DNA of 64,000 nt, taken from the NCBI GenBank assembly GCA_021769135.1, contig JAETTM010000001.1, positions 12,366 through 76,365 of the forward strand. Reading direction: 5' to 3'. This document shows, one piece after another, positions 14,183 through 48,800 of this stretch. This DNA comes from Lachnospiraceae bacterium. GTDB lineage: Bacteria > Bacillota > Clostridia > Lachnospirales > Lachnospiraceae. Positions within the stretch are counted from its first letter, which is position 1, and each line of letters opens with the position of its first letter. Both the position numbers and the translations under genes were made by a program. The notes beneath the pieces were generated by a model. It saw nothing but the letters and a program-made list of their open reading frames with translations. It was not told the origin of the DNA and did not search any database.

Positions 14183-15292
14183 TTATTCTTCCGCTTCCGC
14201 CATTTCAAGTGCCACTGCAATTACTTTATCCATATCGTAATACTTGTATTGCCCAAGCCTGCCGCCGAAAAGCACATTTTTTTCCTTTTCGGCCAGCGCC
14301 TTATATTCCTGGAATAATTTTTCGTTGCGCTCATCATTTACCGGATAATAAGGCTCATCGCCAGGCTGCCAGCTTGCAGGAAATTCCCTTGTAATCACCG
14401 TTCCCGGCTGAGTCCCGAATTCAAAATGCTTGTGTTCGATGATTCTGGTATATGGTATTTCCCCTTCCGTATAATTCACTACCGCGTTGCCTTGATAGTT
14501 GCTGCAGCCAGGAAGCTGTTCCTCTTCAAATTTCAAGGAACGATATTCCAAAGCGCCCAGCCTGTAATCAAAATATTCGTCAATCATCCCCGTATATAGG
14601 ATTTTGCCAAACGTAATCCCCTTTTTCCTGCATGCTTCCAGGAAATCCTTGTAAGCAGTATTCGTACGCACTTCTATCCCATCCAGAAGCTTTTCCACAA
14701 TTGCCGTATATCCCCCTATCGGAATCCCCTGATACAAATCATTAAAGTAATTGTTATCATAGGTAAAACGAAGCGGAATACGCCGGATAATAAATGCCGG
14801 GAGTTCCCTGCAGGAACGCCCCCATTGTTTCTCCGTATACCCTTTAATCAGTTTTTCATACACATCTTTGCCTGCCAAAGACAATGCCTGCTCTTCCAGG
14901 TTTTTGGGCTCTGCAACGCCGAATTCGCTTATCTGCTCTTCTATTTTCTTCTTTGCCTCCAACGGGGTCCTAATCCCCCACATCCTGCTGAAAGTATTCA
15001 TATTAAAAGGCAGATTATACAGTTCATCCTTATATACCGCTACCGGCGAATTCACAAAACGGTTGAACTCGGCATACTGGTTAATATATTCCCATACGCG
15101 TCTGTCCGATGTATGGAAAATATGGGCACCGTACTTATGTACATGGATGCCCAATATTTCCTCCGTATAAATATTCCCCGCAACATGATTCCGCTTATCA
15201 ATAACGATACAGCTTTTCCCCTTCTTTTTCATTTCACACGCAAAAACGGAACCAAATAAACCTGCGCCTACAATCAGATAATCATAATACAT
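14183..15292 (-). CDS. glf: UDP-galactopyranose mutase
   Basis: 369 aa. YDYLIVGAGLFGSVFA FAD motif, HVHKYGAHIFHT, GRLGQYKYYDMD. Confidence 0.93.
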   Translation of the reverse strand: MYYDYLIVGAGLFGSVFACEMKKKGKSCIVIDKRNHVAGNIYTEEILGIHVHKYGAHIFHTSDRRVWEYINQYAEFNRFVNSPVAVYKDELYNLPFNMNTFSRMWGIRTPLEAKKKIEEQISEFGVAEPKNLEEQALSLAGKDVYEKLIKGYTEKQWGRSCRELPAFIIRRIPLRFTYDNNYFNDLYQGIPIGGYTAIVEKLLDGIEVRTNTAYKDFLEACRKKGITFGKILYTGMIDEYFDYRLGALEYRSLKFEEEQLPGCSNYQGNAVVNYTEGEIPYTRIIEHKHFEFGTQPGTVITREFPASWQPGDEPYYPVNDERNEKLFQEYKALAEKEKNVLFGGRLGQYKYYDMDKVIAVALEMAEAEE

Positions 15293-15329
15293 AAATACAG
15301 CTTATCCTTTCAGATCCCGTCTCCTATGT

Positions 15330-15668
15330 TTACTCCTTCAGCTGGTACTTATCCAGCTGTACATAATCGTCCATCATTTCCAGTATTTTCTTACGCCCTG
15401 TCTTATTTAACCGTACATAATACTGCATCACTCTGTTTTCAAGAATCTTCTCGCCAAGGCTTGCGCCTTTTTCCAGCGATGTAAAGTCCACCGGGTTTAA
15501 ATTCAGCTTATCGCACATTTTAATCACCGTGCCATAGGCCATGCCTTCAATTCCTCTATCCAATGCTGTAACCAATGTGCTATAAGGTATCTGCATCTCA
15601 ATAGCAAATTGGCGTACACTTTTGTACTGTGATAAAATTTCCTTTTTCAAAATCTCTGCTTTTGTCAT
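15330..15668 (-). CDS. XRE-like helix-turn-helix protein
   Basis: 112 aa. SQYKSVRQFAIEMQIPYSTLVTALDRG. Lies 37 nt upstream of glf on the same strand. Confidence 0.7.
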   Translation of the reverse strand: MTKAEILKKEILSQYKSVRQFAIEMQIPYSTLVTALDRGIEGMAYGTVIKMCDKLNLNPVDFTSLEKGASLGEKILENRVMQYYVRLNKTGRKKILEMMDDYVQLDKYQLKE

Positions 15669-15841
15669 ACCTATACTTCCTCCTACTGCTTTTTAAGCAT
15701 ATTATTGGCCGCTAAAATATTACATACAAATATCCGATTATTCATCTGTCCATATTATAGCACATATACATTTTCACGCCATCTTTTTTTTGCATTGTAC
15801 AAAAACTTTATGAATATTTTTTTTATAATACCAAAAAACTT

Positions 15842-16692: not shown

Positions 16693-17694
16693 TCACACCC
16701 CTGCCCTATGGCAAAACAGATATTCCGCCAGCGGCAGTTCCATCACTTCCTTATACCAATCGAAAATTTCTTTCTGGAAAAAGAAATCCTCCGCATATGA
16801 CAGCACCTTGAATTCCGGCTCCACCGCAGATTGTATGTACCGATAGCAATTGCTGAAGGCTTCAAACGTCTTCATGGATTCCAGATACCAGAGCAGGAAA
16901 TAAAGGAATTCATTGACAAAGCTTTGTTCATAGGTTCCATATAAGCCCTGCTTTTTCAGCTCCTTTGCAATGAGCGTCCACATGGTAAAGCCATTTTGCC
17001 AGTCATTTTCCTTGGTATTGGACAGGGAGCCGCCGCTTATCCTATGCACCGCCCATTCCTCTTTCCGATAAGCAATCCTTTCCGCCCTGGCCATAAGCAT
17101 ATACACGAAAAACCCGTCTTCCGATGAGCGGAAACAAGGGAACTGATATCCGCATTTTTTCACAAACTCCCTGCGGAAAAGCTTATCCCATGCCCATCCT
17201 TTGGCAATTTGGAAAATCCCCGCGCATAAGAGTTCGCTTCCGGCAAATACCTCTTTTCCGTTTAAGAACACATCTTCATACTCCCAGGCATCGGGCTGCT
17301 GTTCTCCCATTCCATCCGTTTCGCATCCAAAACATTGCCTATATCGGCAAACCACAATATCGGCCCGTCTCTTCTCTGCCTCTTCCGTCATTTTTTCCAG
17401 CATGTACGGCTCATAATAGTCATCCGCATCCAAAAAAGACAAATATTCCCCCGCAGCATATGCCATGCCTTTGTTCCTGGCCGCTCCGGCAAATTGATTT
17501 TCCTGCCTTATCAGCTTTATCCGGGAATCTTTTTGCGCGTAACCCTCCAAAATACGGGGGGAGCTGTCCGTGGATCCATCGTCCACGCATATGATTTCTA
17601 TTTCTTTCAGCGTCTGCCCGCATATGCTGTCCAGACACTGAGCCAAGTATTTTTCTTCATTATAAATGGGTAGAATAACCGATACTTTCACCAT
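16693..17694 (-). CDS. Family 2 glycosyltransferase
   Basis: VSVILPIYNEEKYLAQCLDSICGQT..ICVDDGSTDSS..FLDADDY. Confidence 0.9.
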   Translation of the reverse strand: MVKVSVILPIYNEEKYLAQCLDSICGQTLKEIEIICVDDGSTDSSPRILEGYAQKDSRIKLIRQENQFAGAARNKGMAYAAGEYLSFLDADDYYEPYMLEKMTEEAEKRRADIVVCRYRQCFGCETDGMGEQQPDAWEYEDVFLNGKEVFAGSELLCAGIFQIAKGWAWDKLFRREFVKKCGYQFPCFRSSEDGFFVYMLMARAERIAYRKEEWAVHRISGGSLSNTKENDWQNGFTMWTLIAKELKKQGLYGTYEQSFVNEFLYFLLWYLESMKTFEAFSNCYRYIQSAVEPEFKVLSYAEDFFFQKEIFDWYKEVMELPLAEYLFCHRAGV

Positions 17695-17893: not shown

Positions 17894-19837
17894 ATGCCCA
17901 AGAACATGCGCATGGAGGAAGCTATGGAAGAAATCATCTGCTATACCGGTCATTTGCCCGAAGGCGCGAAACAGAATATTTCATTTATGGAACTTCTCTT
18001 CGATGAACGCTGGGCAGAAGGAGCTGTTTTTTGCCCGAAGGGGATTTTTCAGGAAGTCGGCAGTTTGAATGACAAGCTGACCGCCAATCGGCGTTACGAA
18101 TTCCTGCTGCGCGCGGTGCAGAAATATCCGTTTCTTGCTATTGGGATATCCGACAACTGCATGCATGCCGATGGACAAGGCGCAGGAGGGAATTCTGCCC
18201 CCCTGCCGATGGATGGGCATTGCCAACGGCAGAATATGCCTTTTTCCCCGGAATCTGACGGCTTCCGGCCGCTTGACTGCGGCTGCGGGCCACAGCCTGC
18301 TGACCCTTTCGAGCGCTACCGCACCGACTGCTACATCGCGGGCAAATACCAGCAGGAGCTCCTTTCTTCCGGAAATTTTGATTCCGTTATCCAATCTTTG
18401 CTCGCAGAGGCTTCCCGGCTTCCTGATTACAAAGAAGCGGTTCAATGGCTGGAGGATATGATTTCCCATTCCCCCCGATATTTTGAAATAGATGATAACG
18501 CCCGCCCTATTCTTATATACCGCGGCTCCGATACATGTTACAATATTTTAAACCTTTTGGCCGACCAGCTGGCAGGCGCCCTGCGTTCCTGCGGCCAGCG
18601 GGTCATTGTTTTCGATGTGGAAAAAGAAGGCAACCAGGCGCTGACGCAATGGATTCATTGCCGTTTCAAAGCGGTTATCGGCATTCAGACCTATGTTTTT
18701 TCCATTATGATGCATGATAAAAAAACCAATCTACATGATTTGATTATCGGTCCAAAATATAATCTCATTCTCGACCATCCGTCTATGATGAAAGAACATA
18801 TAGAAAATGGCCCGAAGGATTATTATCTGCTTCTTCATGACCGAAATTATGTAGCCTTTGCCAAATATTTTTATCCTAATGTAAAAGACTGCATTTATTT
18901 CCCGCCCGGGGGCGCACTTCCTTTGGAGGATGATGGACAGATGCCGACTGAAATGCAGCACCAAAGCCAGGAACTATTTAAAGAGCCAGTTCAACGTCAA
19001 AAGCCAGTCCAGCATCAAAGGCCCGCCCAGCATCAAGAGCCCGCCCAGCATCAAAAGCCAGTCCAGCACCAAAGGCCCGCTCAAACACTGCCAGCCATGC
19101 AGGGCTCCCATGCCGGAAAGCAATACGATATCACCTTCATCGGCTCCTATTACAACTACCGCGACCGGCTTTCCTTCATAGCCTCTTTGGAACGGTCCAA
19201 GCGATTCCTTGCCGCCCGCTTTCTGCTGTATATGCGCCAGGAGCCCGACCGCCCTGCCGAGCAGGCATTTCAAAAAGCGTTGGACTACTATCATATCGGC
19301 TTGGACGATGACGGTTTTCTATCCTTATTTTTTGAATTGCGTCAGGCCTGCTTCTGCATCATGCATTATTACAGGGAAAAAATTATCCGCACCCTGCTGG
19401 ATGCCGGGATTGAAATCCATGTATACGGCCCCACCTGGCAGAATGCCCCTTTTTTCTGGCATGAAAAGCTTATCCGCCATCCCGCCCTCGGCGCGGAGGA
19501 AAGCCTGCAGATTATGGCCCAGTCCAAAATTTCTTTAAATATCATGTCCTGGCATAAGGACGGGCTGACCGAACGGGTATTGAATGCCATGCTCTGTCGC
19601 TCCGTCGTATTATCCGATTGGAGTTCTGCTTTGGAAGAAAATTTTATTAATGGAAAAGATTTGCTTCTTTTTTCCTTAAATCGGCTTCATCAGCTTCCCG
19701 GCCTTGTGAAAGGAATGCTGGCGGATAATGTCGGATTGGAGGCCATGGCAGAGCGTGGGTTTGAAAAAGCCTTTGCAGACCATCGATGGAAAAACCGGGC
19801 GGAGAAGTTTTTAAAAGATTTGCGGAATCGTTCGTAA
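17894..19837 (+). CDS. CgeB-like / DUF3880-type glycosyltransferase-family protein with an internal hexapeptide repeat
   Basis: 647 aa. The C-terminal third (ITFIGSYYNYR..IHVYGPTW..SKISLNIMSWHKDGLTERVLNAMLCRSVVLSD..HRW) matches the CgeB/Glyco_trans_1_2 pattern. The N-terminal domain is shared with the partial ORF at 63636. Confidence 0.75.
   Translation: MPKNMRMEEAMEEIICYTGHLPEGAKQNISFMELLFDERWAEGAVFCPKGIFQEVGSLNDKLTANRRYEFLLRAVQKYPFLAIGISDNCMHADGQGAGGNSAPLPMDGHCQRQNMPFSPESDGFRPLDCGCGPQPADPFERYRTDCYIAGKYQQELLSSGNFDSVIQSLLAEASRLPDYKEAVQWLEDMISHSPRYFEIDDNARPILIYRGSDTCYNILNLLADQLAGALRSCGQRVIVFDVEKEGNQALTQWIHCRFKAVIGIQTYVFSIMMHDKKTNLHDLIIGPKYNLILDHPSMMKEHIENGPKDYYLLLHDRNYVAFAKYFYPNVKDCIYFPPGGALPLEDDGQMPTEMQHQSQELFKEPVQRQKPVQHQRPAQHQEPAQHQKPVQHQRPAQTLPAMQGSHAGKQYDITFIGSYYNYRDRLSFIASLERSKRFLAARFLLYMRQEPDRPAEQAFQKALDYYHIGLDDDGFLSLFFELRQACFCIMHYYREKIIRTLLDAGIEIHVYGPTWQNAPFFWHEKLIRHPALGAEESLQIMAQSKISLNIMSWHKDGLTERVLNAMLCRSVVLSDWSSALEENFINGKDLLLFSLNRLHQLPGLVKGMLADNVGLEAMAERGFEKAFADHRWKNRAEKFLKDLRNRS
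18986..19090 (+). repeat. In-frame 18-nt tandem repeat (about 5.8 units) encoding PVQRQK-PVQHQR-PAQHQE-PAQHQK-PVQHQR-PAQTL
   Basis: Direct reading of units ccagtccagcatcaaagg / cccgcccagcatcaagag and so on. Confidence 0.9.
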
Positions 19838-19919
19838 TATATAATATTTATTTCTTTGAATATAAAATATCAACCTATTATCAATACGCTACCGGCGTGC
19901 TTACATGGAGGTACTTCAT

Positions 19920-21023: not shown

Positions 21024-21037
21024 CATTCCTGTTTTAT

Positions 21038-22317: not shown

Positions 22318-23661
22318 TCAAAAAATTCTATCCGGCACTGCCTTCATTTCCAGCCTGTCAAAATAATAAGAGGGCATATATTCATCGTTGAAATATTCTA
22401 TGGGGTTACGAATCCCCATATCTTTCAACTGCGCCTTGATTTCCTCATAGTAAATATTACAGATGAACACAGCGCATTCTTCCGGCAGTTCCTTTAGGCA
22501 CTGGGGGTTTTTCACCTCCAGTCCGCAAAAAACAGTGCCCCATATGGCAGAATCGTTATCGCATGAATAAAGCGGCGGATATTTCTCTCCATAGCATTTC
22601 ATATAATTCCTGCACATATTCCCTGCACCGAACAGCACTCTGGACGGGTATTTTTTCAGTATATTTTCCATTCCTATCTGCCATTTGAAATAATCCGCAA
22701 TGGCCTTTGCCCATTTCAGCAGTTCCGGATACAATAAGGACGGAAAGGCCGAAATAGTATCTTTCATATTGAAAATCATCTCCCCTGCAAATCCCTGCTC
22801 CCGCAGCCCGCGAATCAGCCCCAGCCAATCCGTCTGCGCCTGCCCGTTGTTCACGCTGGCAAAGGGCAACAGCGCATTTTCGTGGCTTCCATCGCAGTCC
22901 CGCAGCACTACCGCTTTCAGCCGCTCACCCAGCCCTGAAATAAAATCATACATATTCATGCCGCACAAATTGCATGCTCCCACATCCATACAAAAGCCAA
23001 ACCGCTCTTCGCCCAATGTTTCATTGAAACTGTCCACCCAGCTTATCGCTTCATATATGTCTGCGCAAATTCCTCTCACCAAGTGCCCATTTCTATCTCT
23101 GCACTGATTTTCCAGCAATATCTGCACTTCATACTCCCTAGCCAGCAATGCCAATTCCATATAATATTCTCTGTTTCTGCTCCATATTTCTTCATCCGGA
23201 ATGCCAGCAAACAACGGCCTTATCACTATGTATTTGCAGCCCGCCTGGCCGCATGCCCGAATGCTCTCCTTCGCCAGCATTGCGAGAAGGGCATTTAAAT
23301 TCGAATACTTATAGCTTCTTGGCAAATAGGGAGCATAGGCAATTTTTATCCGCATGCCGCTTTTTTGGCATTGTTCTATTAACGAAAAAGACTGCGAAAG
23401 GCTGATACTGCCATTGCCATCATACTCGTTTTCAGCACTCTCTCCGCAGCATTCTTCCTCAAAGGCCAATGCGGCTTCCGTTCCCCTTTCTTTCCCTGTC
23501 TTTTCCAGTTCTTCCGGCGGACAACAAAGTGAAAAGTCCAGCAGCATGCTTTCAAAACCTGCATCGGAGAGGCAGGCAATTCCCCTGCCAGGGCTTTTTA
23601 TAGATACGATTCCGGCTGGGGCGCATACTATGTTTATTTCTTTGTTTGTTTTTTCTGTCAT
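22318..23661 (-). CDS. TIM-barrel sugar phosphate isomerase/epimerase fused to the C-terminal Rossmann-like module
   Basis: 447 aa. KYIVIRP..ILLENQ..FCMDVGACNL..AVVLRDCDG, then RVLFGAGNMCRNYMKCYG..SCDNDSAIWGTVFCGLEVKNPQCL..AVFICN..IKAQLKDMGI. Confidence 0.8.
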   Translation of the reverse strand: MTEKTNKEINIVCAPAGIVSIKSPGRGIACLSDAGFESMLLDFSLCCPPEELEKTGKERGTEAALAFEEECCGESAENEYDGNGSISLSQSFSLIEQCQKSGMRIKIAYAPYLPRSYKYSNLNALLAMLAKESIRACGQAGCKYIVIRPLFAGIPDEEIWSRNREYYMELALLAREYEVQILLENQCRDRNGHLVRGICADIYEAISWVDSFNETLGEERFGFCMDVGACNLCGMNMYDFISGLGERLKAVVLRDCDGSHENALLPFASVNNGQAQTDWLGLIRGLREQGFAGEMIFNMKDTISAFPSLLYPELLKWAKAIADYFKWQIGMENILKKYPSRVLFGAGNMCRNYMKCYGEKYPPLYSCDNDSAIWGTVFCGLEVKNPQCLKELPEECAVFICNIYYEEIKAQLKDMGIRNPIEYFNDEYMPSYYFDRLEMKAVPDRIF

Positions 23662-24889: not shown

Positions 24890-24920
24890 ATGCCATTCCT
24901 CTCTTATCGTATCTTCCACA

Positions 24921-30323: not shown

Positions 30324-30342
30324 CACAGCCTCTTTTCCATAT

Positions 30343-31980: not shown

Positions 31981-32457
31981 CTAAACTTCAAACACAATAT
32001 CCTCTATAGAAACAATCGGACATTCTACTTTCTCCTTGAGCATTTCTTCTATTTCATCAAAAAAATCAATTGCAGTTACCACAATAGCATCTACATGGCC
32101 TGGCAGCTCCTCTGGCAGCACAATCGTAATATCGGCATGGCTGGAAAGCACCCTTTTGTCAATTCCATATGCCACTTCTATTTCTGTTCCTTTCAACTCC
32201 TCCAAAAGAGTCTCCCCAATATAACTCATCCCATAGATAGCAACTTTCCTGTAGTTATTTTTTTCAAAAAAAGAAGATAAATTTTTCCCCTCCTGCTTTA
32301 CCTTCACCCATTGATTCATCATATGGAACATTGCTAAAAATTTCCCTGATAATCTTTCCGCTTTCTTTCGTTTATCTCTTTCCGCTTTGCCCACAGCCCC
32401 AGCACCTGCCAATGCTCCCACCAAAGCCGAAAATACCGAAATGGTTTCCTTTTTCAT
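31981..32457 (-). CDS. Stand-alone copy of the Rossmann-like module with an N-terminal hydrophobic helix
   Basis: 158 aa. ISVFSALVGALAGAGAVG, a basic stretch, then MMNQWVKVKQEGKNLSSFFEKNNYRKVAIYGMSYIGETLLEEL..GIDKR..DAIVVTA. No catalytic domain is attached. Confidence 0.65.
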   Translation of the reverse strand: MKKETISVFSALVGALAGAGAVGKAERDKRKKAERLSGKFLAMFHMMNQWVKVKQEGKNLSSFFEKNNYRKVAIYGMSYIGETLLEELKGTEIEVAYGIDKRVLSSHADITIVLPEELPGHVDAIVVTAIDFFDEIEEMLKEKVECPIVSIEDIVFEV

Positions 32458-38875: not shown

Positions 38876-39727
38876 TTAATATTTGTTTAGAAAGACCTTT
38901 CTTACCCGTTTCTGTGCCCTATACTCTTGAATAGAAAAATCCCAATATTTTAAATCTATTACCTCAATTTCATTAAGGGTATTATAGGTATGTATTCCTG
39001 TGAATTTTCTCTTGGTTTTTATAGGAATATCGTCTACTGATATTTTTCTTATTAAATGTTCCTCATAATTTGGCCAAACGCTATCTATTTCACTAAAAGC
39101 TAAACCACCCCCATAGCCTTTAGAGCAATCCTGTGATACCCGGATATACTTGCCATTTTTGTTAAGTATATTTCCTCCTGGACGAGCAAATTCCCTATTA
39201 TCAGTTATATGCCTTTCCCCATCAATGCAGCCATCTTTTAATCTATACAAATAAAGGCCACCACCATGCCTTTGAAAGCTCGGTTTAAATGTAAATAAAT
39301 AATTTTCCCCTTTATATGGGAAAAATGTTGTATCCACACACTTTTCATTTTCAATAAATGTATTTGTTTTCATCCATTTATCCGGAAACTCCCGAAGCTT
39401 ATATACACTCACGTCTTCTCTTTGATAACTTTCCGGGCACATATATAATTCATCATGATAAACAAATATATTTGGATAAGATAAATGCCAGTGCCTGTCC
39501 ATTGTAACTACCCATTCACCAAAAACCCCATTATGGTATTCACAATAACCGATGACTCCATTACGTTCAGATTTATACAAATAAAGCTCTGCGAATAAAT
39601 ATATTTTCTCCTGAAATTCTACCAAAAAAGGATCTGCTGCCCATGCATAAGGTGGGTTAGGAATCAAACGAAACTCTTTTTCTTCTTTCATACGGTAGGC
39701 AATTTGCCAATGATTAAACTTTATCAT
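38876..39727 (-). CDS. Hypothetical protein (possibly a beta-propeller, GH43-like fold)
   Basis: 283 aa. PYAWAADPFLVEF..LSYPNIF..YGGGLAF. The family was not securely recognised. Confidence 0.55.
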   Translation of the reverse strand: MIKFNHWQIAYRMKEEKEFRLIPNPPYAWAADPFLVEFQEKIYLFAELYLYKSERNGVIGYCEYHNGVFGEWVVTMDRHWHLSYPNIFVYHDELYMCPESYQREDVSVYKLREFPDKWMKTNTFIENEKCVDTTFFPYKGENYLFTFKPSFQRHGGGLYLYRLKDGCIDGERHITDNREFARPGGNILNKNGKYIRVSQDCSKGYGGGLAFSEIDSVWPNYEEHLIRKISVDDIPIKTKRKFTGIHTYNTLNEIEVIDLKYWDFSIQEYRAQKRVRKVFLNKY

Positions 39728-40844
39728 AATTTTTGTTTATATCCTGATATATTTTCTCAATCTCTTTTATTTGTTGATTAGTGTCAAATCCTTTCATCAT
39801 AATAATCTTGCTTCTATCTTCTCTCTTTTTCTGAAATGATGCCTTTTTTATCTTCTGAATCCACTCTTCACGATTTGACAACGGTATGCGCTCCGTTCCC
39901 TCAATAATCAAAGCCTCTTGCGGAATCCCTTCGCTACAAAGGCATTCTAATCCACTACATTGTGCCTCCAATAAAACAAGTGGAAATCCTTCCAATAGAG
40001 AAGGCAATACAAAGACATCCATAGCCTGATAATAAGACTCAGTATCTTCTTTTTTACCTACGAAGGTAACCAAATCCATTATTCCAAGCTCCTTTACTAT
40101 TTTTTCCAAATTTTCCCGTAAGGAACCATCTCCTACAATAAGCAAGGCAGCATGGCTAATTTCCTTATGGATTTCAGCAAATATCTCTATCAAAAACTGT
40201 TGATTTTTCACGCGTTCTAATCTGCCAATATGCCCTATTACGAACTTATCTTGTAATTTGAGCCGTTCTCTTATCCGTTCCCTGGATTTTGGGGAAAACG
40301 CAAATCTTTTCGTATCAATCGTGTTTTTAATAAACTTAATTTTTTCTTTTGGTACGGCATCTCCATAAAGCCAATCCGAAGCACTTTGTGAACATGAGAA
40401 ATAGTAATCAGCTAAACTTGCATTGATTTTCCTTTTTATTTCTATATGCCTTTTAAACAATTCTGCTTCTTCATCTGCATTTTTAGCTTTTGATATACCT
40501 GTACTATGCGCATGAATAATAACCTTAATTCCTTTCTCCTTTGCCATTACCTCAACAATAGTGCTCTTCCAAAAACTTGTATGTATCTCTATTGCATCGT
40601 ATTTTTGATTTAGCACATTTCGAAATTCAGCAATAAATGTCTCCATATTTTCCTCTGGATATGCAGATATCCGATACACTTGACAGCCATTATTGATAAA
40701 TTCTTCTGCAAAATCAATTGTTTTACTAAATGTCACAAAATCAAAATGCACCTTGCTTTTATCCATACATCGCCAAATATTCGTTATGTATTGCGTATAT
40801 CCTCCTTTCGATGCTGCAATTGCAAATTGAAGTATTCTTACCAT
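39714..40844 (-). CDS. GT4 (GT-B) glycosyltransferase
   Basis: Start at MVRILQF (GGGGAGAAAG SD). GHIGRLERVKNQ..LPSLLEGFPLVLLEAQCSGL. Confidence 0.85.
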   Translation of the reverse strand: MVRILQFAIAASKGGYTQYITNIWRCMDKSKVHFDFVTFSKTIDFAEEFINNGCQVYRISAYPEENMETFIAEFRNVLNQKYDAIEIHTSFWKSTIVEVMAKEKGIKVIIHAHSTGISKAKNADEEAELFKRHIEIKRKINASLADYYFSCSQSASDWLYGDAVPKEKIKFIKNTIDTKRFAFSPKSRERIRERLKLQDKFVIGHIGRLERVKNQQFLIEIFAEIHKEISHAALLIVGDGSLRENLEKIVKELGIMDLVTFVGKKEDTESYYQAMDVFVLPSLLEGFPLVLLEAQCSGLECLCSEGIPQEALIIEGTERIPLSNREEWIQKIKKASFQKKREDRSKIIMMKGFDTNQQIKEIEKIYQDINKNYDKV

Positions 40845-40860
40845 ATTATCTTTCTCCCCA

Positions 40861-41904
40861 TTAAATTTTTCTTCTATTCTCCGCCATCTCCACCCCCGCA
40901 AAAATAGCGTCCATCATACTCTCCTCATTTGCCCTGCCTTCCCCCGCTTTTCCAAAAGCCGTTCCATGGTCCACCGAAGTCCGGACAATGGGTAATCCAA
41001 TGGTACAGTTAATACCACTTACCGAGTCATACATATTCTTCTGCAAATCATATTTAAATCCACTCAATTTCAGTGGAATATGACCTTGGTCATGATACAT
41101 GGCCACCACAATATCAAATTGCCCGGCCTGACATTTTACAAAAACTGTATCCGGTGATTCCGGCCCGGTCACATCAATCCCCTCTTTTCTCGCTTCCTCT
41201 ATAGCGGGCAGAATCTCCTGTGTTTCTTCCGTTCCAAAAAGGCCGTTCTCTGAACAATGGGGATTCAAGCCTGATACTCCAATTTTAGGGTGCGCATATC
41301 CCAGTTGCCGCATCCCCTCCTGCGCCAGCCGGATAACCTTTAGCACCCGTTCTTTCTTCACTCTGTCACAGGCCTCCCGTAGCGAACAGTGTGTGGATAC
41401 ATGTATCACCCTTAACGTCTTGCTGGCAAGCAGCATGGCAAAATCTTTCGTATTAGTATAATCCGCAAAAATTTCCGTATGTCCACTGTAATGATGCCCT
41501 GACATGTTAATAGATTCTTTGCTAATTGGCGCCGTCACCACTGCCTGCACATTACCCTCCATTGCCTGCTTAATTCCATATATTACATATTGAAAAGATG
41601 CTTCCCCGCATTTTGCACTGTTTTGTTTATACTCCCACTCGCCTGGCCTAATTTTTTTCATGTCAATAAAATCAATGTAGCCAAACTCCCCTTTGGCTTC
41701 TGACACATCTGCCACTTTGCGCAGTTTAACAGGCAGACTGCAAAAACAAATAGCATCTGCCAGCGCTGCATAATCACCGATTACCACCGGTATGCACTTC
41801 TTATATATGTCCACATGGCTCAGTGCCTTTACAATGATTTCCGAACCAACCCCTGCCGGGTCACCCATAGTAATAGCGATTCTCATCCTTTTTCCCTGGC
41901 TCAT
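40861..41904 (-). CDS. PdxA-family NAD-dependent 4-phospho-hydroxyacid dehydrogenase
   Basis: RIAITMGDPAGVGSEI..YSGHTE..IHVSTHCSL..DHGTAFGKAG. Its ATG overlaps the stop of the upstream cytidylyltransferase (ATGA). Confidence 0.88.
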   Translation of the reverse strand: MSQGKRMRIAITMGDPAGVGSEIIVKALSHVDIYKKCIPVVIGDYAALADAICFCSLPVKLRKVADVSEAKGEFGYIDFIDMKKIRPGEWEYKQNSAKCGEASFQYVIYGIKQAMEGNVQAVVTAPISKESINMSGHHYSGHTEIFADYTNTKDFAMLLASKTLRVIHVSTHCSLREACDRVKKERVLKVIRLAQEGMRQLGYAHPKIGVSGLNPHCSENGLFGTEETQEILPAIEEARKEGIDVTGPESPDTVFVKCQAGQFDIVVAMYHDQGHIPLKLSGFKYDLQKNMYDSVSGINCTIGLPIVRTSVDHGTAFGKAGEGRANEESMMDAIFAGVEMAENRRKI

Positions 41905-42338
41905 ATACTATCTCCGCTCATGATTTTCTCCCGGATTTCCGTAGTGGAAATTCCTTTTGTATAGGGAACATACACCACATCCACATTTACTTTAGCAAGC
42001 ACCTTTTCAAACTGATTCCACCGCGGTGTTCCTTTCCAGTCATCGCCGATGAACACCACATCAAAGTGGTACAGTTCCCACAGCTTTAGTTTATCCCGAA
42101 ACCGATTGATTTCCGCCCGGTCCACCCCTTTCACCGACTCTATAATTCTTTTTCTATCATTTTCATTAATAATTGGCCGACAATGCTTATATTCTTCCAC
42201 CACATCGTCTCCATGTACCCCTACTATCAAATATTCACAATTTTGTTTTGCTGTTTGAATCATGTTTAAATGCCCTATATGGAACAAATCGTATACCCCG
42301 TCCGTATAACCAATTTTATATTTCCTCTTTTCTTCCAA
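41901..42338 (-). CDS. TagD-like HxGH cytidylyltransferase
   Basis: 145 aa. IGYTDGVYDLFHIGHLNMIQTAK..YLIVGVHGDD..STTEIREKI. Confidence 0.88.
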   Translation of the reverse strand: MEEKRKYKIGYTDGVYDLFHIGHLNMIQTAKQNCEYLIVGVHGDDVVEEYKHCRPIINENDRKRIIESVKGVDRAEINRFRDKLKLWELYHFDVVFIGDDWKGTPRWNQFEKVLAKVNVDVVYVPYTKGISTTEIREKIMSGDSI

Positions 42339-42430
42339 TGTCTGTCGCTCCTTAAATGTAACAGTTCAGCCTCCCTTAACGCTCTGCTTCCTCTATACTA
42401 GAAAATAGCCTTATACTATCTATCAATGCT

Positions 42431-43267
42431 TTAGTTCTCCGGCAATTTAAGTTCTGACACCGGATGCACCTTGCGTTTATCTTTTGGCGGAAGCTCCATA
42501 TAGTTTCCATATTTTACTTTCAGATAGCCGTCATAGTCCATCGCCCCAGGAAGGTTCATATCCGCAAACCGATATTCCGCCAACTGTGTATACCACTTTC
42601 TCTCATATCCGTATACCCTTTTCGGAGTCGGAAATGTGAGGATACGCACCAGCTTAGTTTTTTTCTTTTGTCCATCATCAATAAATTTCTGATAACGATT
42701 TACAATCATTTTCATCGGAATATGTCTAAGCAAATGATAAATACATCGTATCCCTGTATTTTTTTCTACCCTGCTTCCCACTTCCGACCAAAACAGCTTG
42801 CGAAATAAAAAACATCGGAAAAAATGGATTCTCCTGGAAAGCCACCCATCCGGCACATTGTCAAAAGGCATAAGGTCTATAAAAATTCCCTGCTCATAAG
42901 GCATAAATTCCTGTCCAAGCCTTGTAAACACCGTATTTTTCCTGCGAAGCTTGCCATATCCCCAGCGGTATCCTTCCGTATCCCGCAAATCCTGCATATA
43001 ATATTTTTCATGGTTCAGCTCTGTTTTACATGCTTTTCGGAATTTTTCATACTCCGTTCGAAGGAACCCAATGTCCGCATCATCATCCCATGGAATATGC
43101 CCTTTATGACGGATAGCTCCGAGCATCGTTCCTCCGACCATATTGAAATGAATATTGCACTTTTGGCATATTCGTTTTACCTCACCAATCAATTCCCTCT
43201 GAACGCCCTGAATCTGCCCCAACTCTTTTTCTGATATACAATATTGTTGCATTTTACTATTACTCAC
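42431..43267 (-). CDS. LicD-family phosphotransferase
   Basis: LIGEVKRICQKCNIHFNMVGGTMLGAIRHKGHIPWDDDADIGF. Confidence 0.88.
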   Translation of the reverse strand: MSNSKMQQYCISEKELGQIQGVQRELIGEVKRICQKCNIHFNMVGGTMLGAIRHKGHIPWDDDADIGFLRTEYEKFRKACKTELNHEKYYMQDLRDTEGYRWGYGKLRRKNTVFTRLGQEFMPYEQGIFIDLMPFDNVPDGWLSRRIHFFRCFLFRKLFWSEVGSRVEKNTGIRCIYHLLRHIPMKMIVNRYQKFIDDGQKKKTKLVRILTFPTPKRVYGYERKWYTQLAEYRFADMNLPGAMDYDGYLKVKYGNYMELPPKDKRKVHPVSELKLPEN

Positions 43268-43308
43268 TTTTTCTTCCCTTTATTATCATAAACTTTTCTT
43301 ACAAAATT

Positions 43309-44475
43309 TTATTTCCCTGCGGGTTCACATTCTGTTAAATAATTAGTAAAAACGCCCGTTACATTCATTCTTCTAAGTGCCGAATACTCATCAACAGAAT
43401 CCGTACTGAAAGCAAATATTTTAATATTTTTATCTGTAAAAATCCTTATTAACTTCTTCCACTCCAAGCAGGCATCTACCGGCATCGCTATTACTTTTAC
43501 ACCATATTTATGACAGAGGATGACTGTATTCATGAAATAAGACCATTGTGGATTTCTATATTGTGTAAAAATCATGTTGAATTCTTTTTCCTTTGCAATC
43601 TTAATTGTCTCTTCATCATATACTTCCATAATAACTTGACCTTTCAAGACACCTCTTTCATTACTATCATCACAAATAGTTTGGATAAGCCTGTCGATTT
43701 CATTTACCAGAAGACAATATTCATCATGATCTTTCCATTTAGTATCAATAAGACAGTGCATCTCTCTATGCTTTTTTAAAAGCATGAGCAGGTCTTTTGC
43801 TGTCATCATCGAATACTGTTCCTCTTCCAATTCCCAGCAACGTTCCCAATCATGCAGCAATACTAATTCCCCATTATATAAACGCGTCAAATCACATTCT
43901 AAAAGCTTAAATTTTTTCTTTACCGAATATTCAAAAGCTTCTTTTGAATTTGAATACATCATTCTTTTTCCATTAACAATTCCACCACAAGCATGGGAAA
44001 TCATTCTGCCTTTGTTGTACCATTCTTCCACTTTTTCTTCGCAAGCCGGAATCTTTGAATAAATATCAAACATAGTTCTATATTCTGTAACAATATTTAT
44101 TATTTTTTGTGGTTCAAAATATATCTTTTTTATAAGATTTATATCAATATCATCTATATTTCCCACACAATATCGTTTAATATCCTTTGCAACAAATACT
44201 TGAATTTTTTCCTTTTCAATCCCCATATCTATTAACTGTTCTTTAATTCCCTCATATGCTGATAATGCCGTTACCAAAATATAGTCTACAGCCTTCTCGC
44301 AAACCAACTGTTTGGAAGCAGCCATAATAGGAATATTCCTATAACAAATCCCATGCTTCGTTTCATCATTATCAAAAAATAATACTATTTCCGTATTTAA
44401 TGGATTGATTCCTTCTATGATAGCATTTAAAATGCCATCACTGATTCCCCAAATTGCAATTCGAACTTTTTTCAT
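43309..44475 (-). CDS. N-terminal Rossmann-like module fused to a glycerophosphodiester-phosphodiesterase-like (GDPD) domain
   Basis: VRIAIWGISDGILNAI..FFDNDETKHGICYRNIPI, then ISHACGG..YSNSKEAFEYSVKKKFKLLECDL..GELVLLHDW. Confidence 0.7.
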   Translation of the reverse strand: MKKVRIAIWGISDGILNAIIEGINPLNTEIVLFFDNDETKHGICYRNIPIMAASKQLVCEKAVDYILVTALSAYEGIKEQLIDMGIEKEKIQVFVAKDIKRYCVGNIDDIDINLIKKIYFEPQKIINIVTEYRTMFDIYSKIPACEEKVEEWYNKGRMISHACGGIVNGKRMMYSNSKEAFEYSVKKKFKLLECDLTRLYNGELVLLHDWERCWELEEEQYSMMTAKDLLMLLKKHREMHCLIDTKWKDHDEYCLLVNEIDRLIQTICDDSNERGVLKGQVIMEVYDEETIKIAKEKEFNMIFTQYRNPQWSYFMNTVILCHKYGVKVIAMPVDACLEWKKLIRIFTDKNIKIFAFSTDSVDEYSALRRMNVTGVFTNYLTECEPAGK

Positions 44476-44546
44476 GGAAATTGCTCCTTTTCAGAATACT
44501 GCCTTCTGCAAATGCCCTTGACTATATTTTCTATACGTTCATATCC

Positions 44547-45890
44547 TCATACGTGCAATCTTTTTTCGTCATGCATAAATTTTTCCATAATTTCTGCAAT
44601 AGCAAGGGATTCTTCCCCTGTCAGCTTAAATCTACTTTTATCATCTCCGTTAATCATATTGATAAAGTCCTTGATTTCATACCGAAGCCCGTTCCCTAAA
44701 AACCTCTCGGAATATTTATCTACACGGGAAACATCTTCATAATGGACTTCAAAATAAGTTGTCTTCCACCATGGTGCTTCCACCACGATATATCCTTTGG
44801 TTCCTGCAATCAAAAGCCTTCCCTCTGATTTTACGCCCAGGCCGCAGGTTGCCGTAGCAATTCCCTTTGAATAACAGAAAGAAGCCTTCGTAAAAAGATC
44901 CACTCCATTCTTATCATGTATTATATCAAACCTAATATCATCATATTGATATCCAAACAACTTGATAATCGGGAGCAGGCAATAGCTCGCCAACTCTGTA
45001 AAACTGCCTCCATACTTCTCATCTGTCAGTTCTCTGCTGCCTGCATTCTCCAGCTTGGTAAAGCAAGCATCAATATAACGAATAGTTCCAATAGTTCCAC
45101 TACAGGCAATTCCTAACAATTTTTCAAATCCTGGGCAATATGCTGTCTTAATTCCCTCCACCAATATCAGTTGATGTTGCCTGGCATATGCAAAAAGTTC
45201 TTCCGCCTGTTCACGCCGAAGCACCATAGGCTTCTCGCATAGTACATGCTTTCCATGTTCCAGAGCAAACTTCACATATTCATAGTGAAACTGATGTGGT
45301 GATGCTACATAGACCACATCCACATCTCTACAAAATGATTTCAAATCATCATAAGCATCTATCTCCCACTTTCGTGCAAAAGCTTCCGCGCTTTCTTTAT
45401 GGGGATTGTATACTCCTTGTGCGCTGATACCGCTGACCAGCTTTGCCTCTGGTATAAAGCGGTTGGCTATCCTTCCAGTACCAATAATTCCTGCTTTCAA
45501 AATCCGTTTGTTCTGTTCCCTGAGCATAGTGCTGGATATATTTTTTGTCCGCTCCAGATAGACTACTTTACAGAAATCGTTGATAAAGTCAAATGTTCCT
45601 GTCCAGTCGGAGCCCACTGTAAAAATATCCACACTATACTTCTTGATATCATTTATTTTTTGACCCAGTGTCTCTTCCACAATAATTTCATCGGCAAACC
45701 CAGTCTTTTTCACATTTTCCATACGAGTCAGCAAAGGATCTACCACATTGAGTTTCCCTCTCTCAATATCATATTTCTCGCTGGTTACTCCCACAATCAG
45801 ATAATCGCCAAGCGCTTTCGCCCTTTGCAGTAAACGGTAATGGCCTTCATGGAATAAATCAAATGTACCATACGTAATTACTTTCACCAT
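44547..45890 (-). CDS. Bifunctional HxGH cytidylyltransferase / Gfo-Idh-MocA oxidoreductase
   Basis: VITYGTFDLFHEGHYRLLQRAK..YLIVGVTSE..SSTMLR, then ILKAGIIGTGRIANRF..VYVASPHQFHYEY..GKHVLCEKP. Confidence 0.85.
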   Translation of the reverse strand: MVKVITYGTFDLFHEGHYRLLQRAKALGDYLIVGVTSEKYDIERGKLNVVDPLLTRMENVKKTGFADEIIVEETLGQKINDIKKYSVDIFTVGSDWTGTFDFINDFCKVVYLERTKNISSTMLREQNKRILKAGIIGTGRIANRFIPEAKLVSGISAQGVYNPHKESAEAFARKWEIDAYDDLKSFCRDVDVVYVASPHQFHYEYVKFALEHGKHVLCEKPMVLRREQAEELFAYARQHQLILVEGIKTAYCPGFEKLLGIACSGTIGTIRYIDACFTKLENAGSRELTDEKYGGSFTELASYCLLPIIKLFGYQYDDIRFDIIHDKNGVDLFTKASFCYSKGIATATCGLGVKSEGRLLIAGTKGYIVVEAPWWKTTYFEVHYEDVSRVDKYSERFLGNGLRYEIKDFINMINGDDKSRFKLTGEESLAIAEIMEKFMHDEKRLHV

Positions 45891-45894
45891 ACTA

Positions 45895-46080
45895 TTATCC
45901 TCCGTTCCTATTTCCAGCTACAAACCGATAAATCTTTTCCCTGCATGTTCCGCCATTTTTCCGCGAATAATGAGGCTTATTCCCTTGAGCAATTATCCAT
46001 TCACCATCTCCATCCTGGTAAAATTCGGTTACGATTTCTCCCCGCCAGTCATCCGCATCTACGGGCTCCAATCTAATAAT
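45895..46080 (-). pseudogene. Remnant of a second TagF-like paralog
   Basis: The minus-strand frame reads IIRLEPVDADDWRGEIVTEFYQDGDGEWIIAQGNKPHYS|RKNGGTCREKIYRFVAGN. In the intact neighbour (46170-48800) the matching stretches are EEPSEEDWRGEIITGFRRDGYDEWKITQGNKLYYS and DGTCGEKIYRFAAT. The roughly 380 codons between these two blocks are missing. Confidence 0.5.
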
Positions 46081-46169
46081 TCAAAGCAACATATGTCCAT
46101 TCTATCATTGCCAATCAAATACCCAACCCAACCAATGGTTGGGTTTAAACACAACATTTAGCGCGTTGC

Positions 46170-48800
46170 CTATGGGAATGCATCCTCTGTGGCCGCAAAC
46201 CGATATATCTTTTCTCCGCATGTTCCATCATTATTTTCCACAATCGTCCTGTATGCCTCTCTTTGAAGTTCTTGACTAAAAAGTTTCCCTGGCGTTTTCC
46301 CGCTTAGAAAATCGGACAATGAATGAAATGCATCCTCATTGCAGCTGTACGTCATCCACTGAGAGGTCTTATCAAAACCCGCCGCATGCTCTTCCAGTTC
46401 TTTTTTATCAAATTCTATAGGAATTTCCCTATATCCTCCGTTTTCCAAATCAACATCATATAGTTTTCTGGCTTGGACATCATAATATCGGTAGCTCCAC
46501 TCCCCCAGCACATCCGTCTTTCGTACAAAAATTCCTACCGACCAAAACGGGAAATATCCGTTTTTTTCTTCATAAGACACTTCAAAGGGCGGTTTCCATT
46601 CCTCGCATTTCCCTGTGTCTCTATTCAGCATCAGAAACATATTTCCCAAGCTAGGGGATAATATCAAATTATTTTTATATGGTATCGCCATACTAAAAAG
46701 AGAGCTTTCCTTATTTTCTCCACAATATCCGGCAGCCCCATCCCGCATATGGATTGTTTCCGGTAATTCGGAATATTCTCTCGCCTCTCCCGTCTCTGGA
46801 TCCCAGCGTGTAACCATCCGACCCACATAAGGGAGAAACCATATCTCCTTATCCACTGCAATCATTGTCGCACATCCGCAGGAATTTCCAGGTTTTATCG
46901 TAAATACCTGGGTTTCCAGGCTCTCGCTGTGAATGGCCAGCACCTTGCTGTCCACAGGGGAAGCCAGCATCAGGTATTGATTCCATGTACAGCTCCCCCC
47001 TACTCTGTGTTCCCCGTCTATTTCCCTGATAAATATTTCATTTGAACCCATAACGTAGGATACTTTATCATTTCGGGTATCCAGACGCACAATATAGGGA
47101 TATCTATTTGGAACAAGAAAAAGATACTCACCAATTCTCCAGGCTAGATTAAATGCGCCAGGCACTTCTAAGAATCGTTCCAATTCAATCCTCTTAATAA
47201 TTTTCCTGTCCTCTATCACCAAAATATCCTGTGCATTCGCTGGACATATATATACCTTTCCATTTATCTCAATTGCGCTGGAATAATATTCACCCCCAGC
47301 ATACTCCGACAAATCACAGTAGTATTCATATCTATAATCATTATCTGGCGAATAATAAAGCTTATTCCCCTGGGTAATTTTCCATTCGTCATATCCATCC
47401 CGTCTAAACCCGGTTATGATTTCCCCACGCCAATCCTCTTCCGACGGCTCTTCGGAAATGTTGTTATTCAAAATAAACATAGGCTTTCCCGCAATGCCAA
47501 ACAGGGCGGTTACGGATGTTCCCGCATCGCCAATATAAACATCGCTTAAAGCGATTGTGTCTTCAATATTCGGCGTATCGTCAAAAATCCCCCAGTCCTC
47601 CCGAATAAATTGCTGCTTCAACGAGTCATACATAGGCCGATACTCTGCTCTCATGGAATCCAAAGTAGATTCCATCAACGGATGAGGCCGCCATAATAAA
47701 CAGACATCCTCCCTTCCCCTGAAACAGCGGAACACATATTCCATTTTCTTCAGGAATTTCTCCGTATTTCCCAGTATTCCACCCAAACTTGTATTGTAAA
47801 AGTACACCTTTTTGCCTTCCATTTTCTTTTTCCAGCTCTCTGGCGCCTCCGGTGGGTTTTGGCACTTTTTCAGTACACTATCAGATTTAGGCGAACCTAA
47901 TGCCTGAAATTTTTTATCGGGAATGATGGGGTCAAAAAATTTCCTGAATTTTTCCGATTGGATGATAATATAGTCCGCATGAACATATGCTGAACATAGC
48001 GACTGCCCTTCGCTCATTCCGCCGGTTGTTATATAATAAGGTATATATACTAAACAGTCTGTAAACTTTTTTATATTGCTGGAATAAAAGAAGGGGTGAA
48101 TGCTTGTCACCGCATTAGCCATGTCATACGGATTGTGTATAAATATCATATCCGGATGATGTCCTTTAAAATCAAACTCATCATATTTTGTAATAGGCAC
48201 ATACTCCGGATACTGTTCGCCCTCATAATGCATCTCCCCCAAGCTTCCATCCGGCTTTTTATCAAAATATGGAATCGGTATTACATAAGCATCGCAATCA
48301 GAGTCCGCTTTCGCTGCCTCCCAGACGCTCTCCAAAGAATCCCACATGGATGCCTTGTAGGGAAGAAAAACAGCTTCTTTCCTTATTTTGATATCATTGC
48401 GTACGCTGTTCCTTATCTGTTTCAATGATTCGTTCAGATGATTCCATGTAGTACCTGGATTTGCATTATGCCCCTGTTCACCGCCGATAATTGTGCCCTT
48501 CTCACCCTGTCCTTTTTCACTGACCGTTCCATCTCCAGTATACCGGCTCATTCCAGCAACTTCTTCATAAATTCCATAAACCAGTTCGCAATAGTTTTCC
48601 AGCAGATGGATTGTTGGAAAGTCTTCCCCTTCTGCCTTCTCTATCATCTCCCCCAGTTTCATTGCCCCATCCTGACATTGCCCCAACAGGTCTAGTGCCG
48701 TATTCTTTTCATTTGCCCTGATAGCCGCCTTTATTTCGTTATGAGCCTGTCCAAGCAGATTTAGGAATTCCTCCGCCTGATTTTTCTGCATTCTCCTCAC
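46170..48800 (-). CDS. CDP-alcohol (TagB/TagF-family) glycerophosphotransferase-like enzyme with an N-terminal helical domain and a ~400-aa C-terminal repeat/propeller-like domain
   Basis: 876 aa. AVFLPYKASMWDSLESVW..IHNPYD..LVYIPY..LLWRPHP..DVYIGDAGTSVTALFGIAGKP. The C-terminal half has no recognised motif. Confidence 0.8.
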   Translation of the reverse strand: MRRMQKNQAEEFLNLLGQAHNEIKAAIRANEKNTALDLLGQCQDGAMKLGEMIEKAEGEDFPTIHLLENYCELVYGIYEEVAGMSRYTGDGTVSEKGQGEKGTIIGGEQGHNANPGTTWNHLNESLKQIRNSVRNDIKIRKEAVFLPYKASMWDSLESVWEAAKADSDCDAYVIPIPYFDKKPDGSLGEMHYEGEQYPEYVPITKYDEFDFKGHHPDMIFIHNPYDMANAVTSIHPFFYSSNIKKFTDCLVYIPYYITTGGMSEGQSLCSAYVHADYIIIQSEKFRKFFDPIIPDKKFQALGSPKSDSVLKKCQNPPEAPESWKKKMEGKKVYFYNTSLGGILGNTEKFLKKMEYVFRCFRGREDVCLLWRPHPLMESTLDSMRAEYRPMYDSLKQQFIREDWGIFDDTPNIEDTIALSDVYIGDAGTSVTALFGIAGKPMFILNNNISEEPSEEDWRGEIITGFRRDGYDEWKITQGNKLYYSPDNDYRYEYYCDLSEYAGGEYYSSAIEINGKVYICPANAQDILVIEDRKIIKRIELERFLEVPGAFNLAWRIGEYLFLVPNRYPYIVRLDTRNDKVSYVMGSNEIFIREIDGEHRVGGSCTWNQYLMLASPVDSKVLAIHSESLETQVFTIKPGNSCGCATMIAVDKEIWFLPYVGRMVTRWDPETGEAREYSELPETIHMRDGAAGYCGENKESSLFSMAIPYKNNLILSPSLGNMFLMLNRDTGKCEEWKPPFEVSYEEKNGYFPFWSVGIFVRKTDVLGEWSYRYYDVQARKLYDVDLENGGYREIPIEFDKKELEEHAAGFDKTSQWMTYSCNEDAFHSLSDFLSGKTPGKLFSQELQREAYRTIVENNDGTCGEKIYRFAATEDAFP

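Follow-up and report, generated by a model that had tools for sequence, protein, structure and literature searches.

The analysed stretch, hereafter the window (64,000 nucleotides; C15:12366-76365), is part of the genome of a Lachnospiraceae bacterium (G000; 4.43 Mb, 152 contigs). It contains at 14183-48800 a block of glycan genes that was analysed as a putative flagellin glycosylation island. Positions are those of the window unless prefixed with a contig. Pfam scans revealed 27 intact glycan-type genes in the island, all but two on the minus strand, and its sequence was also detected in rat-gut metagenome runs. Several of the genes listed here encode a recurrent Rossmann-like module that is described below.

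14183-15292, minus strand: UDP-galactopyranose mutase Glf (GLF, 275 bits)
15330-15668, minus strand: 112-residue protein that looks like a helix-turn-helix (HTH) protein, XRE-type by eye
16693-17694, minus strand: glycosyltransferase of family 2, GT2 (Glycos_transf_2, 149 bits)
17894-19837, plus strand: CgeB-like GT-B glycosyltransferase (Glyco_trans_1_2), 647 residues
19905-21023, plus strand: GmaR-type GT2 with tetratricopeptide repeats (GT2-TPR), 372 residues
21247-22236 and 22318-23661, minus strand: two xylose-isomerase-like TIM barrels of the sugar isomerase/epimerase type (AP_endonuc_2)
23807-24991 and 24921-25847, minus strand: FkbM-type and class-I S-adenosylmethionine (SAM) methyltransferases, both carrying the module
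25862-28117, minus strand: 751-residue fusion ending in the module and a TagD-like cytidylyltransferase (CTP_transf_like, 70.7 bits)
28133-29434, minus strand: GT2, 433 residues
29439-30362, minus strand: 307-residue protein, no family match
30343-31953, minus strand: glycosyltransferase of family 4 (GT4) with the module
31981-32457, minus strand: stand-alone module protein, 158 residues
32472-33653, minus strand: second GT4
33710-34939, minus strand: module with GT-D (277 bits)
34977-36185, minus strand: RgpF-like protein (RgpF, 189 bits)
36245-37783, minus strand: WbsX (367 bits) with the module
37780-38856, minus strand: module with a methyltransferase-like protein (weak methyltransferase match)
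38876-40901, minus strand: GINT1_N-like protein and third GT4 (39714-40901), both by Pfam
40861-45890, minus strand: phosphodiester cassette of a PdxA-family dehydrogenase, a cytidylyltransferase, LicD, the module with GDPD, and a cytidylyltransferase-GFO/IDH/MocA fusion
42431-43267, minus strand: the LicD gene of this cassette (Pfam)
46170-48800, minus strand: 876-residue protein, first gene of the operon
49067-49093, minus strand: sigma-28 (FliA/SigD)-type motif TAAAG-N14-GCCGATAA, 267 nucleotides upstream of 46170-48800

A preliminary description, made from the sequence alone, had listed three GT2 and three GT4 genes together with GT-D, RgpF, WbsX, CgeB-like, LicD and TIM-barrel genes, and the Pfam scans agreed with its inventory apart from three genes, those that it called TagF-like (46170-48800), deacetylase-like and FliD-like. 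The gene that it called deacetylase-like, probably 29439-30362, had no Pfam, NCBIfam or PDB match. The 112-residue protein had no match in Pfam or NCBIfam. The 751-residue fusion matched the NCBIfam models g3p_cytidyltrns and NeuD N-terminus, and its N-terminal two thirds had no Pfam match; orthologues were found in Lachnospiraceae bacterium UBA7093 (88%), Butyrivibrio sp. MB2005, Hungatella sp. and G020 (48%). In total, Pfam detected three cytidylyltransferase domains in the island in addition to PdxA and GDPD.

The Rossmann-like module of about 90 residues was rebuilt as a hidden Markov model, which located it in ten proteins of the island, including the C-terminus of the second TIM-barrel protein (22318-23661), and nowhere else in the genome. 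For the survey of this module, 24 genomes of the same genus were compared, and it was present in 19 of them. Wherever contiguity allowed (G009, G012, G013, G015, G017, G020 and G021), the module clusters were on the contig with flagellin and flgL, 11-57 kb downstream. These co-locations within the genus are not independent of one another; independent evidence came from G039, a genome of another family in which module clusters lay 2.3 kb from flagellin, and from the metagenome contigs described below. The module weakly resembled the WbpM-type N-terminal domain (PDB 3nkl, E 9e-9), Rex, the N-terminus of NeuD/PglD and PF22674. Its most likely role is to offer the ten proteins a shared surface for docking or for binding nucleotides.

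The preliminary description had noted essentially no membrane proteins at 14183-48800, and this was borne out by a Kyte-Doolittle scan, which found no membrane protein in the island and only isolated marginal segments with scores of 1.65-1.75, one of them at the N-terminus of the 158-residue module protein. The same was true of the 18 genes between the right end of the window and the flagellin gene, none of which had two or more transmembrane-like segments by hydropathy scan. In the genome as a whole, 530 of the 2486 open reading frames of at least 150 residues (21%) had two or more such segments, so that, at this background rate, a run of about 45 consecutive glycan genes without any such protein has a chance probability of about 2 in 100,000 (0.79^45). 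No priming transferase, flippase, polymerase or ATP-binding cassette (ABC) exporter flanked the locus on either side, in keeping with the acceptor favoured by the preliminary description, a cytoplasmic protein rather than a lipid-linked polymer. An alternative is that the island carries out only the cytoplasmic steps in the synthesis of a wall or teichoic-acid-like polymer or an exopolysaccharide, with the priming and export genes located elsewhere. The teichoic-acid-type chemistry (TagD-like cytidylyltransferases, LicD, GDPD and RgpF) fits such a polymer, as do the five Bac_transf priming transferase genes of the genome, which are all on other contigs. However, undecaprenyl-phosphate pathways normally keep flippase or ABC genes in cis, and no membrane proteins were found in about 68 kb here or in the corresponding 40-kb locus of G020.

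Searching the genome with PF00669 revealed four flagellin-type genes, two of them on C15 and both of these on the minus strand, namely a flagellin of 282 residues (C15:94151-94999) and FlgL (C15:100233-101885); the number of flagellins in the genome is three. The organism thus has flagellin, and inspection of the flanking DNA, as suggested in the preliminary description, located the C15 gene 33 kb past the island and 18 kb beyond the right end of the window on the same strand. The surrounding FlgN-like, FliS, FliD, FlaG, FliW and FlgM genes were confirmed by Pfam. A second cluster of soluble glycan genes leads up to this flagellin gene and begins within the window.

62530-64000: start of the flagellin-proximal cluster, with a methyltransferase (62530-63396, minus strand) and a CgeB-like gene (from 63636, plus strand)

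The 18 further soluble genes lie between the window and flagellin, and the content of the cluster includes four GT-B enzymes of the CgeB/DUF3880 type, three GT2-methyltransferase fusions, two Glyco_tranf_2_5 proteins, two LicD proteins and methyltransferases. Tandem paralogues were observed at C15:76001-94042 (three GT2-methyltransferases, three to four CgeB/DUF3880 proteins and two pairs of Glyco_tranf_2_5 with a protein of about 220 residues and unassigned family), which suggests recent duplication and diversification beside the flagellin gene.

Synteny was compared with G020 and G015, two complete genomes of the same genus. Both genomes had a frame of rpoBC to nusG, a FliD-like gene, a carboxyltransferase gene, glf, the HTH gene, a glycan block of 40-50 kb, flagellin, fliS, and fliD to flgM. 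Within the variable block, homologues from the island and from the flagellin-proximal cluster were mixed and continued without interruption from glf to flagellin. Those from the island were the 751-residue fusion, the 876-residue protein, GT2, the cytidylyltransferase-GFO fusion, the TIM barrels, GT2-TPR and the CgeB-like protein. The GT2-TPR homologue was 7-8 kb from flagellin in both genomes, and a homologue 42% identical to the CgeB-like protein (17894-19837) was 4 kb from flagellin in G015. Genes of the CgeB/YkvP_N type also adjoined flagellin in the metagenome contigs L027 and L036. Because homologues of both clusters occupy a single flagellin-bounded block in the relatives, the island appears to be one half of a single locus that is split in G000. 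The whole locus most likely extends from glf (14183) to the flagellin gene at C15:94151-94999 and spans roughly 68 kb with about 57 genes, of which the island is the distal half.

GT2-TPR provided a link to a characterised flagellin-modifying enzyme. Its best match among all PDB sequences was GmaR (22ao_A; E 2.2e-29, 106 bits, residues 9-211), with the DxD region aligned (DCDE against DADE) and roughly half of the first 100 residues identical as judged by eye in the alignment. The next PDB matches were the peptide S-glycosyltransferases SunS and ThuS, and the best NCBIfam match was SunS, below the cut-off. Comparison with GmaR, proposed in the preliminary description, thus grouped the enzyme with transferases that glycosylate proteins or peptides. 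TPR_2, TPR_8 and TPR_1 matches followed the catalytic domain at residues 216-358. GmaR of Listeria monocytogenes is the flagellin O-N-acetylglucosamine (O-GlcNAc) transferase and MogR antirepressor, a protein of 637 residues and four domains whose TPR domain has been proposed to recognise flagellin (PMC9638930). The two enzymes share a homologous GT2 catalytic domain followed by TPR repeats, but the protein described here ends at residue 372, without the C-terminal linker and antirepressor domains of GmaR, and therefore a regulatory role of the MogR type is not expected. Whereas GmaR adds a single GlcNAc, GT2-TPR belongs to a multi-enzyme island. Three genes of this kind in L027 and two in L036 directly adjoined flagellin, and the sequence makes GT2-TPR a candidate for the priming enzyme that acts on Ser/Thr of flagellin.

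The 876-residue protein (46170-48800) had no Pfam match even at E<=1, no NCBIfam match and no PDB sequence match. Its family comprised 2634 members, mostly of about 845 residues, and the few named matches were hypothetical proteins of Lachnospiraceae or Acetatifactor. The AlphaFold2 model (predicted local distance difference test, pLDDT, 86; predicted template modelling score, pTM, 0.78) was composed of a helical bundle at the N-terminus, a GT-B core spanning residues 140-445 approximately and a C-terminal beta-propeller (about 470-800). Foldseek matched the model to GT-B UDP-GlcNAc 2-epimerases (E 2e-9, TM about 0.5-0.57 on the target) and to assorted propellers, and TagF was not among the top 50 matches. 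The Glyphos_transf signature PF04464 of the TagF/FtaD family was likewise not detected at E<=1. An hhalign comparison with a PF04464 protein of L027 was weak (probability 2.8%, E 0.016) and aligned the C-terminal HP...D...S/T...P block. As no family was matched even at this threshold, the term TagF-like in the preliminary description was not supported by the sequence of the protein and is now argued from fold and context. CD0244/FtaD of Clostridioides difficile has been reported to resemble TagF and UDP-GlcNAc 2-epimerase (PMC10714395), and the 876-residue protein shares with it the resemblance to UDP-GlcNAc 2-epimerases, by fold. In contrast to FtaD, it carries an extra helical bundle and a beta-propeller, and the PF04464 signature is not detectable in it.

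The context of the 876-residue protein was highly conserved. In all seven contigs examined, as well as here, the next gene after its homologue encoded the cytidylyltransferase-GFO/IDH/MocA fusion; GDPD followed in six of the seven and LicD in four. Flagellin was located within 10 kb upstream of this cassette in three Lachnospiraceae contigs (L025, L027 and L036), where the cassette comes directly after it. The order in L025 was flagellin, GT2, an 844-residue protein, the cytidylyltransferase-GFO fusion, GDPD, LicD, cytidylyltransferase and PdxA, and the last six genes of this run were those of 40861-48800 in the same order. Because of its fold, the arrangement of its motifs and the invariable coupling to a cytidylyltransferase, the 876-residue protein can be reasoned to be a TagF/FtaD-like phosphotransferase that would transfer CDP-alcohols to the flagellin glycan. 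It is also conceivable, though rather doubtful, that the family of about 845 residues represents new sigma-28-controlled flagellin-glycan phosphotransferases that dock through the propeller as analogues of TagF/FtaD, and that the module joins the soluble enzymes of the island in a carrier-free assembly line for a teichoic-acid-like glycan on protein.

The promoter region of the 876-residue protein gene contained a motif of the flagellar type. The two main flagellin genes of the genome were preceded by TAAAG-N14/15-TCCGATAT. A strict sigma-D pattern of the Bacillus subtilis type (TAAA-N14-16-GCCGATA) gave 25 matches in the genome, mostly intragenic, and missed the flagellin promoters; it was therefore replaced by a motif generalised from the flagellin promoters of the genome itself. 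The generalised motif matched 43 sites genome-wide (4.4 Mb), only ten of them intergenic. Four matches, all on the minus strand, were located within the first 112 kb of C15, one each before flgM, flaG-fliD, flagellin and 46170-48800. A FliA/WhiG sigma factor is encoded on C143 (263 bits, above the cut-off). The motif was found at a similar distance before the 876-residue homologue in L027. It was also present before that in L038, a contig in which flagellin was not located within 10 kb, and with one mismatch (GTCGATA) before the homologues in L036 and L026. Consensus scans of the island for sigma-70 promoters and terminators gave matches at chance level and no operon borders. Elsewhere in G000, the sigma-28 motif was also observed upstream of a DUF6033 protein (C122:23537-24364) and a 410-residue protein of unassigned family (C22:89127-90359); both may belong to the flagellar regulon as members not yet characterised.

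The left border of the variable region was formed by glf, which was 77% identical in G020 and G015, and by the adjacent gene of the 112-residue HTH-looking protein, which was more conserved than glf (90-92%) and may be a candidate regulator of the glycan region. In G015, a PelF-like protein (DUF3492 with GT4), PelG, DUF2194, a Wzx flippase, a GT2 with BspA-type leucine-rich repeats and a 776-residue protein with 12 transmembrane segments were encoded between the soluble block and glf, in the region G015:C1:830001-850000. These wedged-in, membrane-linked genes mark the interval from the carboxyltransferase to flagellin as a general hot spot for glycan genes. They also favour the secreted polymer considered above, against which stand the flagellar promoter motif and the cassettes that adjoin flagellin in other genomes, so that this explanation is regarded as quite improbable. 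A mixed locus was also considered, in which about 40861-48800, GT2-TPR and the CgeB-like protein serve flagellin, and glf with the GT2 at 16693-17694 is a remnant or feeder of another glycan system. The border formed by glf and the HTH gene is fixed and adjoins the exopolysaccharide/Wzx locus in G015, and the intervening genes vary greatly within the genus, both of which would be expected of a mixed locus; yet nothing else near glf in G000 and G020 could use UDP-galactofuranose (UDP-Galf) for export, and Galf may be a constituent of the flagellin glycan. On balance, a mixed origin of this kind is considered fairly unlikely.

Taken together, the island is very probably part of a hypervariable flagellin glycosylation locus, whose products modify flagellin in the cytoplasm. 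The preliminary description had proposed a cytoplasmic protein acceptor with flagellin as the first guess, and this view gained support from synteny, the sigma-28 motif and the recurrence of the cassette beside flagellin. The gene anatomy, linkage, GmaR homology and promoter motif were observed; from them we infer a mechanism, including which protein is modified, in what order the steps occur, which donors are used and what the module does. The main operon, from 48800 to about 21247, would be under the control of the sigma-28 promoter and would therefore be expressed with the late flagellar genes. GT2-TPR would use its TPR array to recognise flagellin that is unfolded or free of chaperone, and attach the first sugar, probably an N-acetylhexosamine (HexNAc), to Ser/Thr. 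The soluble GT2, GT4, GT-D, RgpF, WbsX and CgeB-like transferases would then lengthen the glycan on the protein without an undecaprenyl carrier, with UDP-Galf made by Glf and the sugar products of the two TIM-barrel enzymes as possible donors. Several SAM methyltransferases may cap hydroxyl or amino groups. The cytidylyltransferase domains and the PdxA-type and GFO-type oxidoreductases would produce CDP-activated alcohols or acids, LicD and the 876-residue protein would attach phosphodiester-linked substituents in the manner of C. difficile FtaD (CD0244), and GDPD would trim or transfer them. The modified flagellin would finally leave the cell through the flagellar type III export channel.

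Several observations weigh against this interpretation. The island is on the same contig as flagellin at a distance of 33 kb, of which 13 kb are unrelated genes, and in four of the seven contigs no flagellin was located within 10 kb of the 876-residue cassette. The evidence for sigma-28 is a motif match, and four public runs gave contigs of 150-850 bases on either side of the promoter, too short to reveal a transcription start. Flagellin is the acceptor predicted from genes and context. More than 20 transferases for a flagellin of 282 residues are more than any characterised flagellin glycan needs, which suggests redundancy, alternative glycoforms or several acceptors. Since genes of the Wzx and Pel types adjoin glf in G015, a secreted polymer may be what glf, and perhaps the genes next to it, contribute to, which makes it uncertain where the flagellin island ends on the left. 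Finally, the organism is an endospore former, as SpoIVA is present (404 bits), and the CgeB and YkvP_N/DUF3880 families, both represented in the locus (CgeB-like by Glyco_trans_1_2), are named after Bacillus spore proteins. Glycosylation of the spore surface (coat, crust or exosporium) in the mother-cell cytoplasm would need no exporter, and the all-soluble gene content would fit it. However, the link between the locus and flagellin extends throughout the genus and into other families, the locus encodes a GmaR-type transferase, and no spore-coat genes were among its Pfam matches; the motif found was of the sigma-28 type, sporulation promoters not having been searched. A role in the spore is therefore thought highly improbable.

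Among known systems, cytoplasmic modification of flagellin is best compared with the type A locus of C. difficile (CD0240 and FtaABCD/CD0241-0244), which is likewise flagellin-linked, being located downstream of fliC, and entirely cytoplasmic and follows the same logic of glycosyl transfer and then phosphodiester formation (PMC4441256, PMC10714395). There, a priming glycosyltransferase adds HexNAc to Ser/Thr, a cytidylyltransferase generates the donor linked to cytidine diphosphate (CDP), a TagF-like GT-B enzyme transfers it and a methyltransferase acts (PMC4441256, PMC10714395, bioRxiv 10.64898/2026.02.12.704994). The product on C. difficile FliC is GlcNAc-phospho-N-methylthreonine, made from CDP-donors by the TagF-like FtaD (PMC10714395; bioRxiv 10.64898/2026.02.12.704994). 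Larger fta-containing clusters have already been noted in Lachnospiraceae sp. (bioRxiv 10.64898/2026.02.12.704994). In contrast to the five genes of the C. difficile locus, about 57 were found here, including at least 20 transferases, LicD, GDPD, PdxA-type and GFO-type oxidoreductases, Glf and the shared module. The islands of Campylobacter, Aeromonas, Pseudomonas aeruginosa (a-type) and Clostridium are similar as hypervariable, flagellin-linked blocks of genes for cytoplasmic sugar synthesis and transfer (PMC4065374, PMC13317340). The locus described here differs from them in its teichoic-acid-type chemistry, its size at the upper end and its splitting by a defence mosaic. The flagellin islands of Campylobacter, Aeromonas, Pseudomonas and Clostridium are co-regulated with late flagellar genes. 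The nonulosonic-acid (Pse/Leg) pathway, Maf and FlmG were absent from the Pfam matches of the locus. The cgeB, sps and ykvP genes of B. subtilis, which glycosylate the spore crust, also include soluble GT-B enzymes of the CgeB/YkvP family and no export machinery, but the linkage and the promoter motif are flagellar here.

The type of system is thus known, a flagellin glycosylation island, but this example is of unusual size, and its make-up is undescribed. It is distinguished by its scale (roughly 68 kb, about 57 genes), its phosphodiester chemistry, the shared module, the unclassified GT-B/propeller family and the defence mosaic within. No specific paper on flagellin glycosylation in Lachnospiraceae, Roseburia or Butyrivibrio was found, and we know of no report of GT-D, RgpF or WbsX on flagellin. 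Flagellins of Lachnospiraceae are major immune-stimulating antigens of the mammalian gut, and their glycans are essentially uncharacterised. From the locus, a flagellin glycan is predicted that is very elaborate, bears phosphodiester substituents and is made without a lipid carrier. The analysis names a candidate priming enzyme of the GmaR type, and at the head of the conserved phospho-cassette it places a family with more than 2,600 members that is so far uncharacterised.

The two halves of the locus are separated in G000 by an insert of defence-type and selfish genes, which marks the glycan region as a hot spot for the insertion of defence genes.

49147-62144: mosaic insert that splits the locus, with PD-(D/E)XK/AAA, two Uma2, HipA_C-like, HEPN, DUF262 (GmrSD_N) and Dcm genes

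The mosaic had no counterpart in G020 and G015 apart from a homologue of its GT11 gene in G015. This gene (53787-54665, plus strand; fucosyltransferase family) lies between the two Uma2 genes, and the homologue, 68% identical, is located between fliW and flaG in the flagellar operon of G015. The other embedded gene of glycan type encodes a phosphonopyruvate-decarboxylase-like thiamine diphosphate (ThDP) enzyme (50143-51267, minus strand) between two AAA/PD-(D/E)XK genes; the only gene of the phosphoenolpyruvate-mutase family in the genome is elsewhere (C14:21599-22360). At 57488-60447 (minus strand), a Dcm cytosine methyltransferase, DUF262 (GmrSD_N) and a HEPN protein of the MAE_28990 type stand in a row and form a candidate defence cassette.

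The left side of the window is occupied by conserved genes.

1-13926: left flank, with rpoC, rpoB, L7/L12, L10, CapA-like, L1, L11, NusG, FliD-like and acyl-CoA carboxyltransferase genes
10590-12122, plus strand: FliD-like gene (FliD_C, 29.8 bits, E 5e-7; NCBIfam scores far below the cut-off)

The preliminary description had pointed to the FliD-like gene near the island. A marginal FliD_C match is indeed present, but the gene is not the true fliD, which encodes a protein of 683 residues (86 and 71 bits) at C15:96034-98085, outside the window. The FliD-like gene is kept between nusG and the carboxyltransferase gene in G020 and G015 with 64-65% identity and is not part of the island. The CapA-like (PGA_cap) gene (6547-7875, minus strand), located between rplJ and rplA, encodes a protein with one N-terminal transmembrane segment and was 65% identical in G020 and G015.

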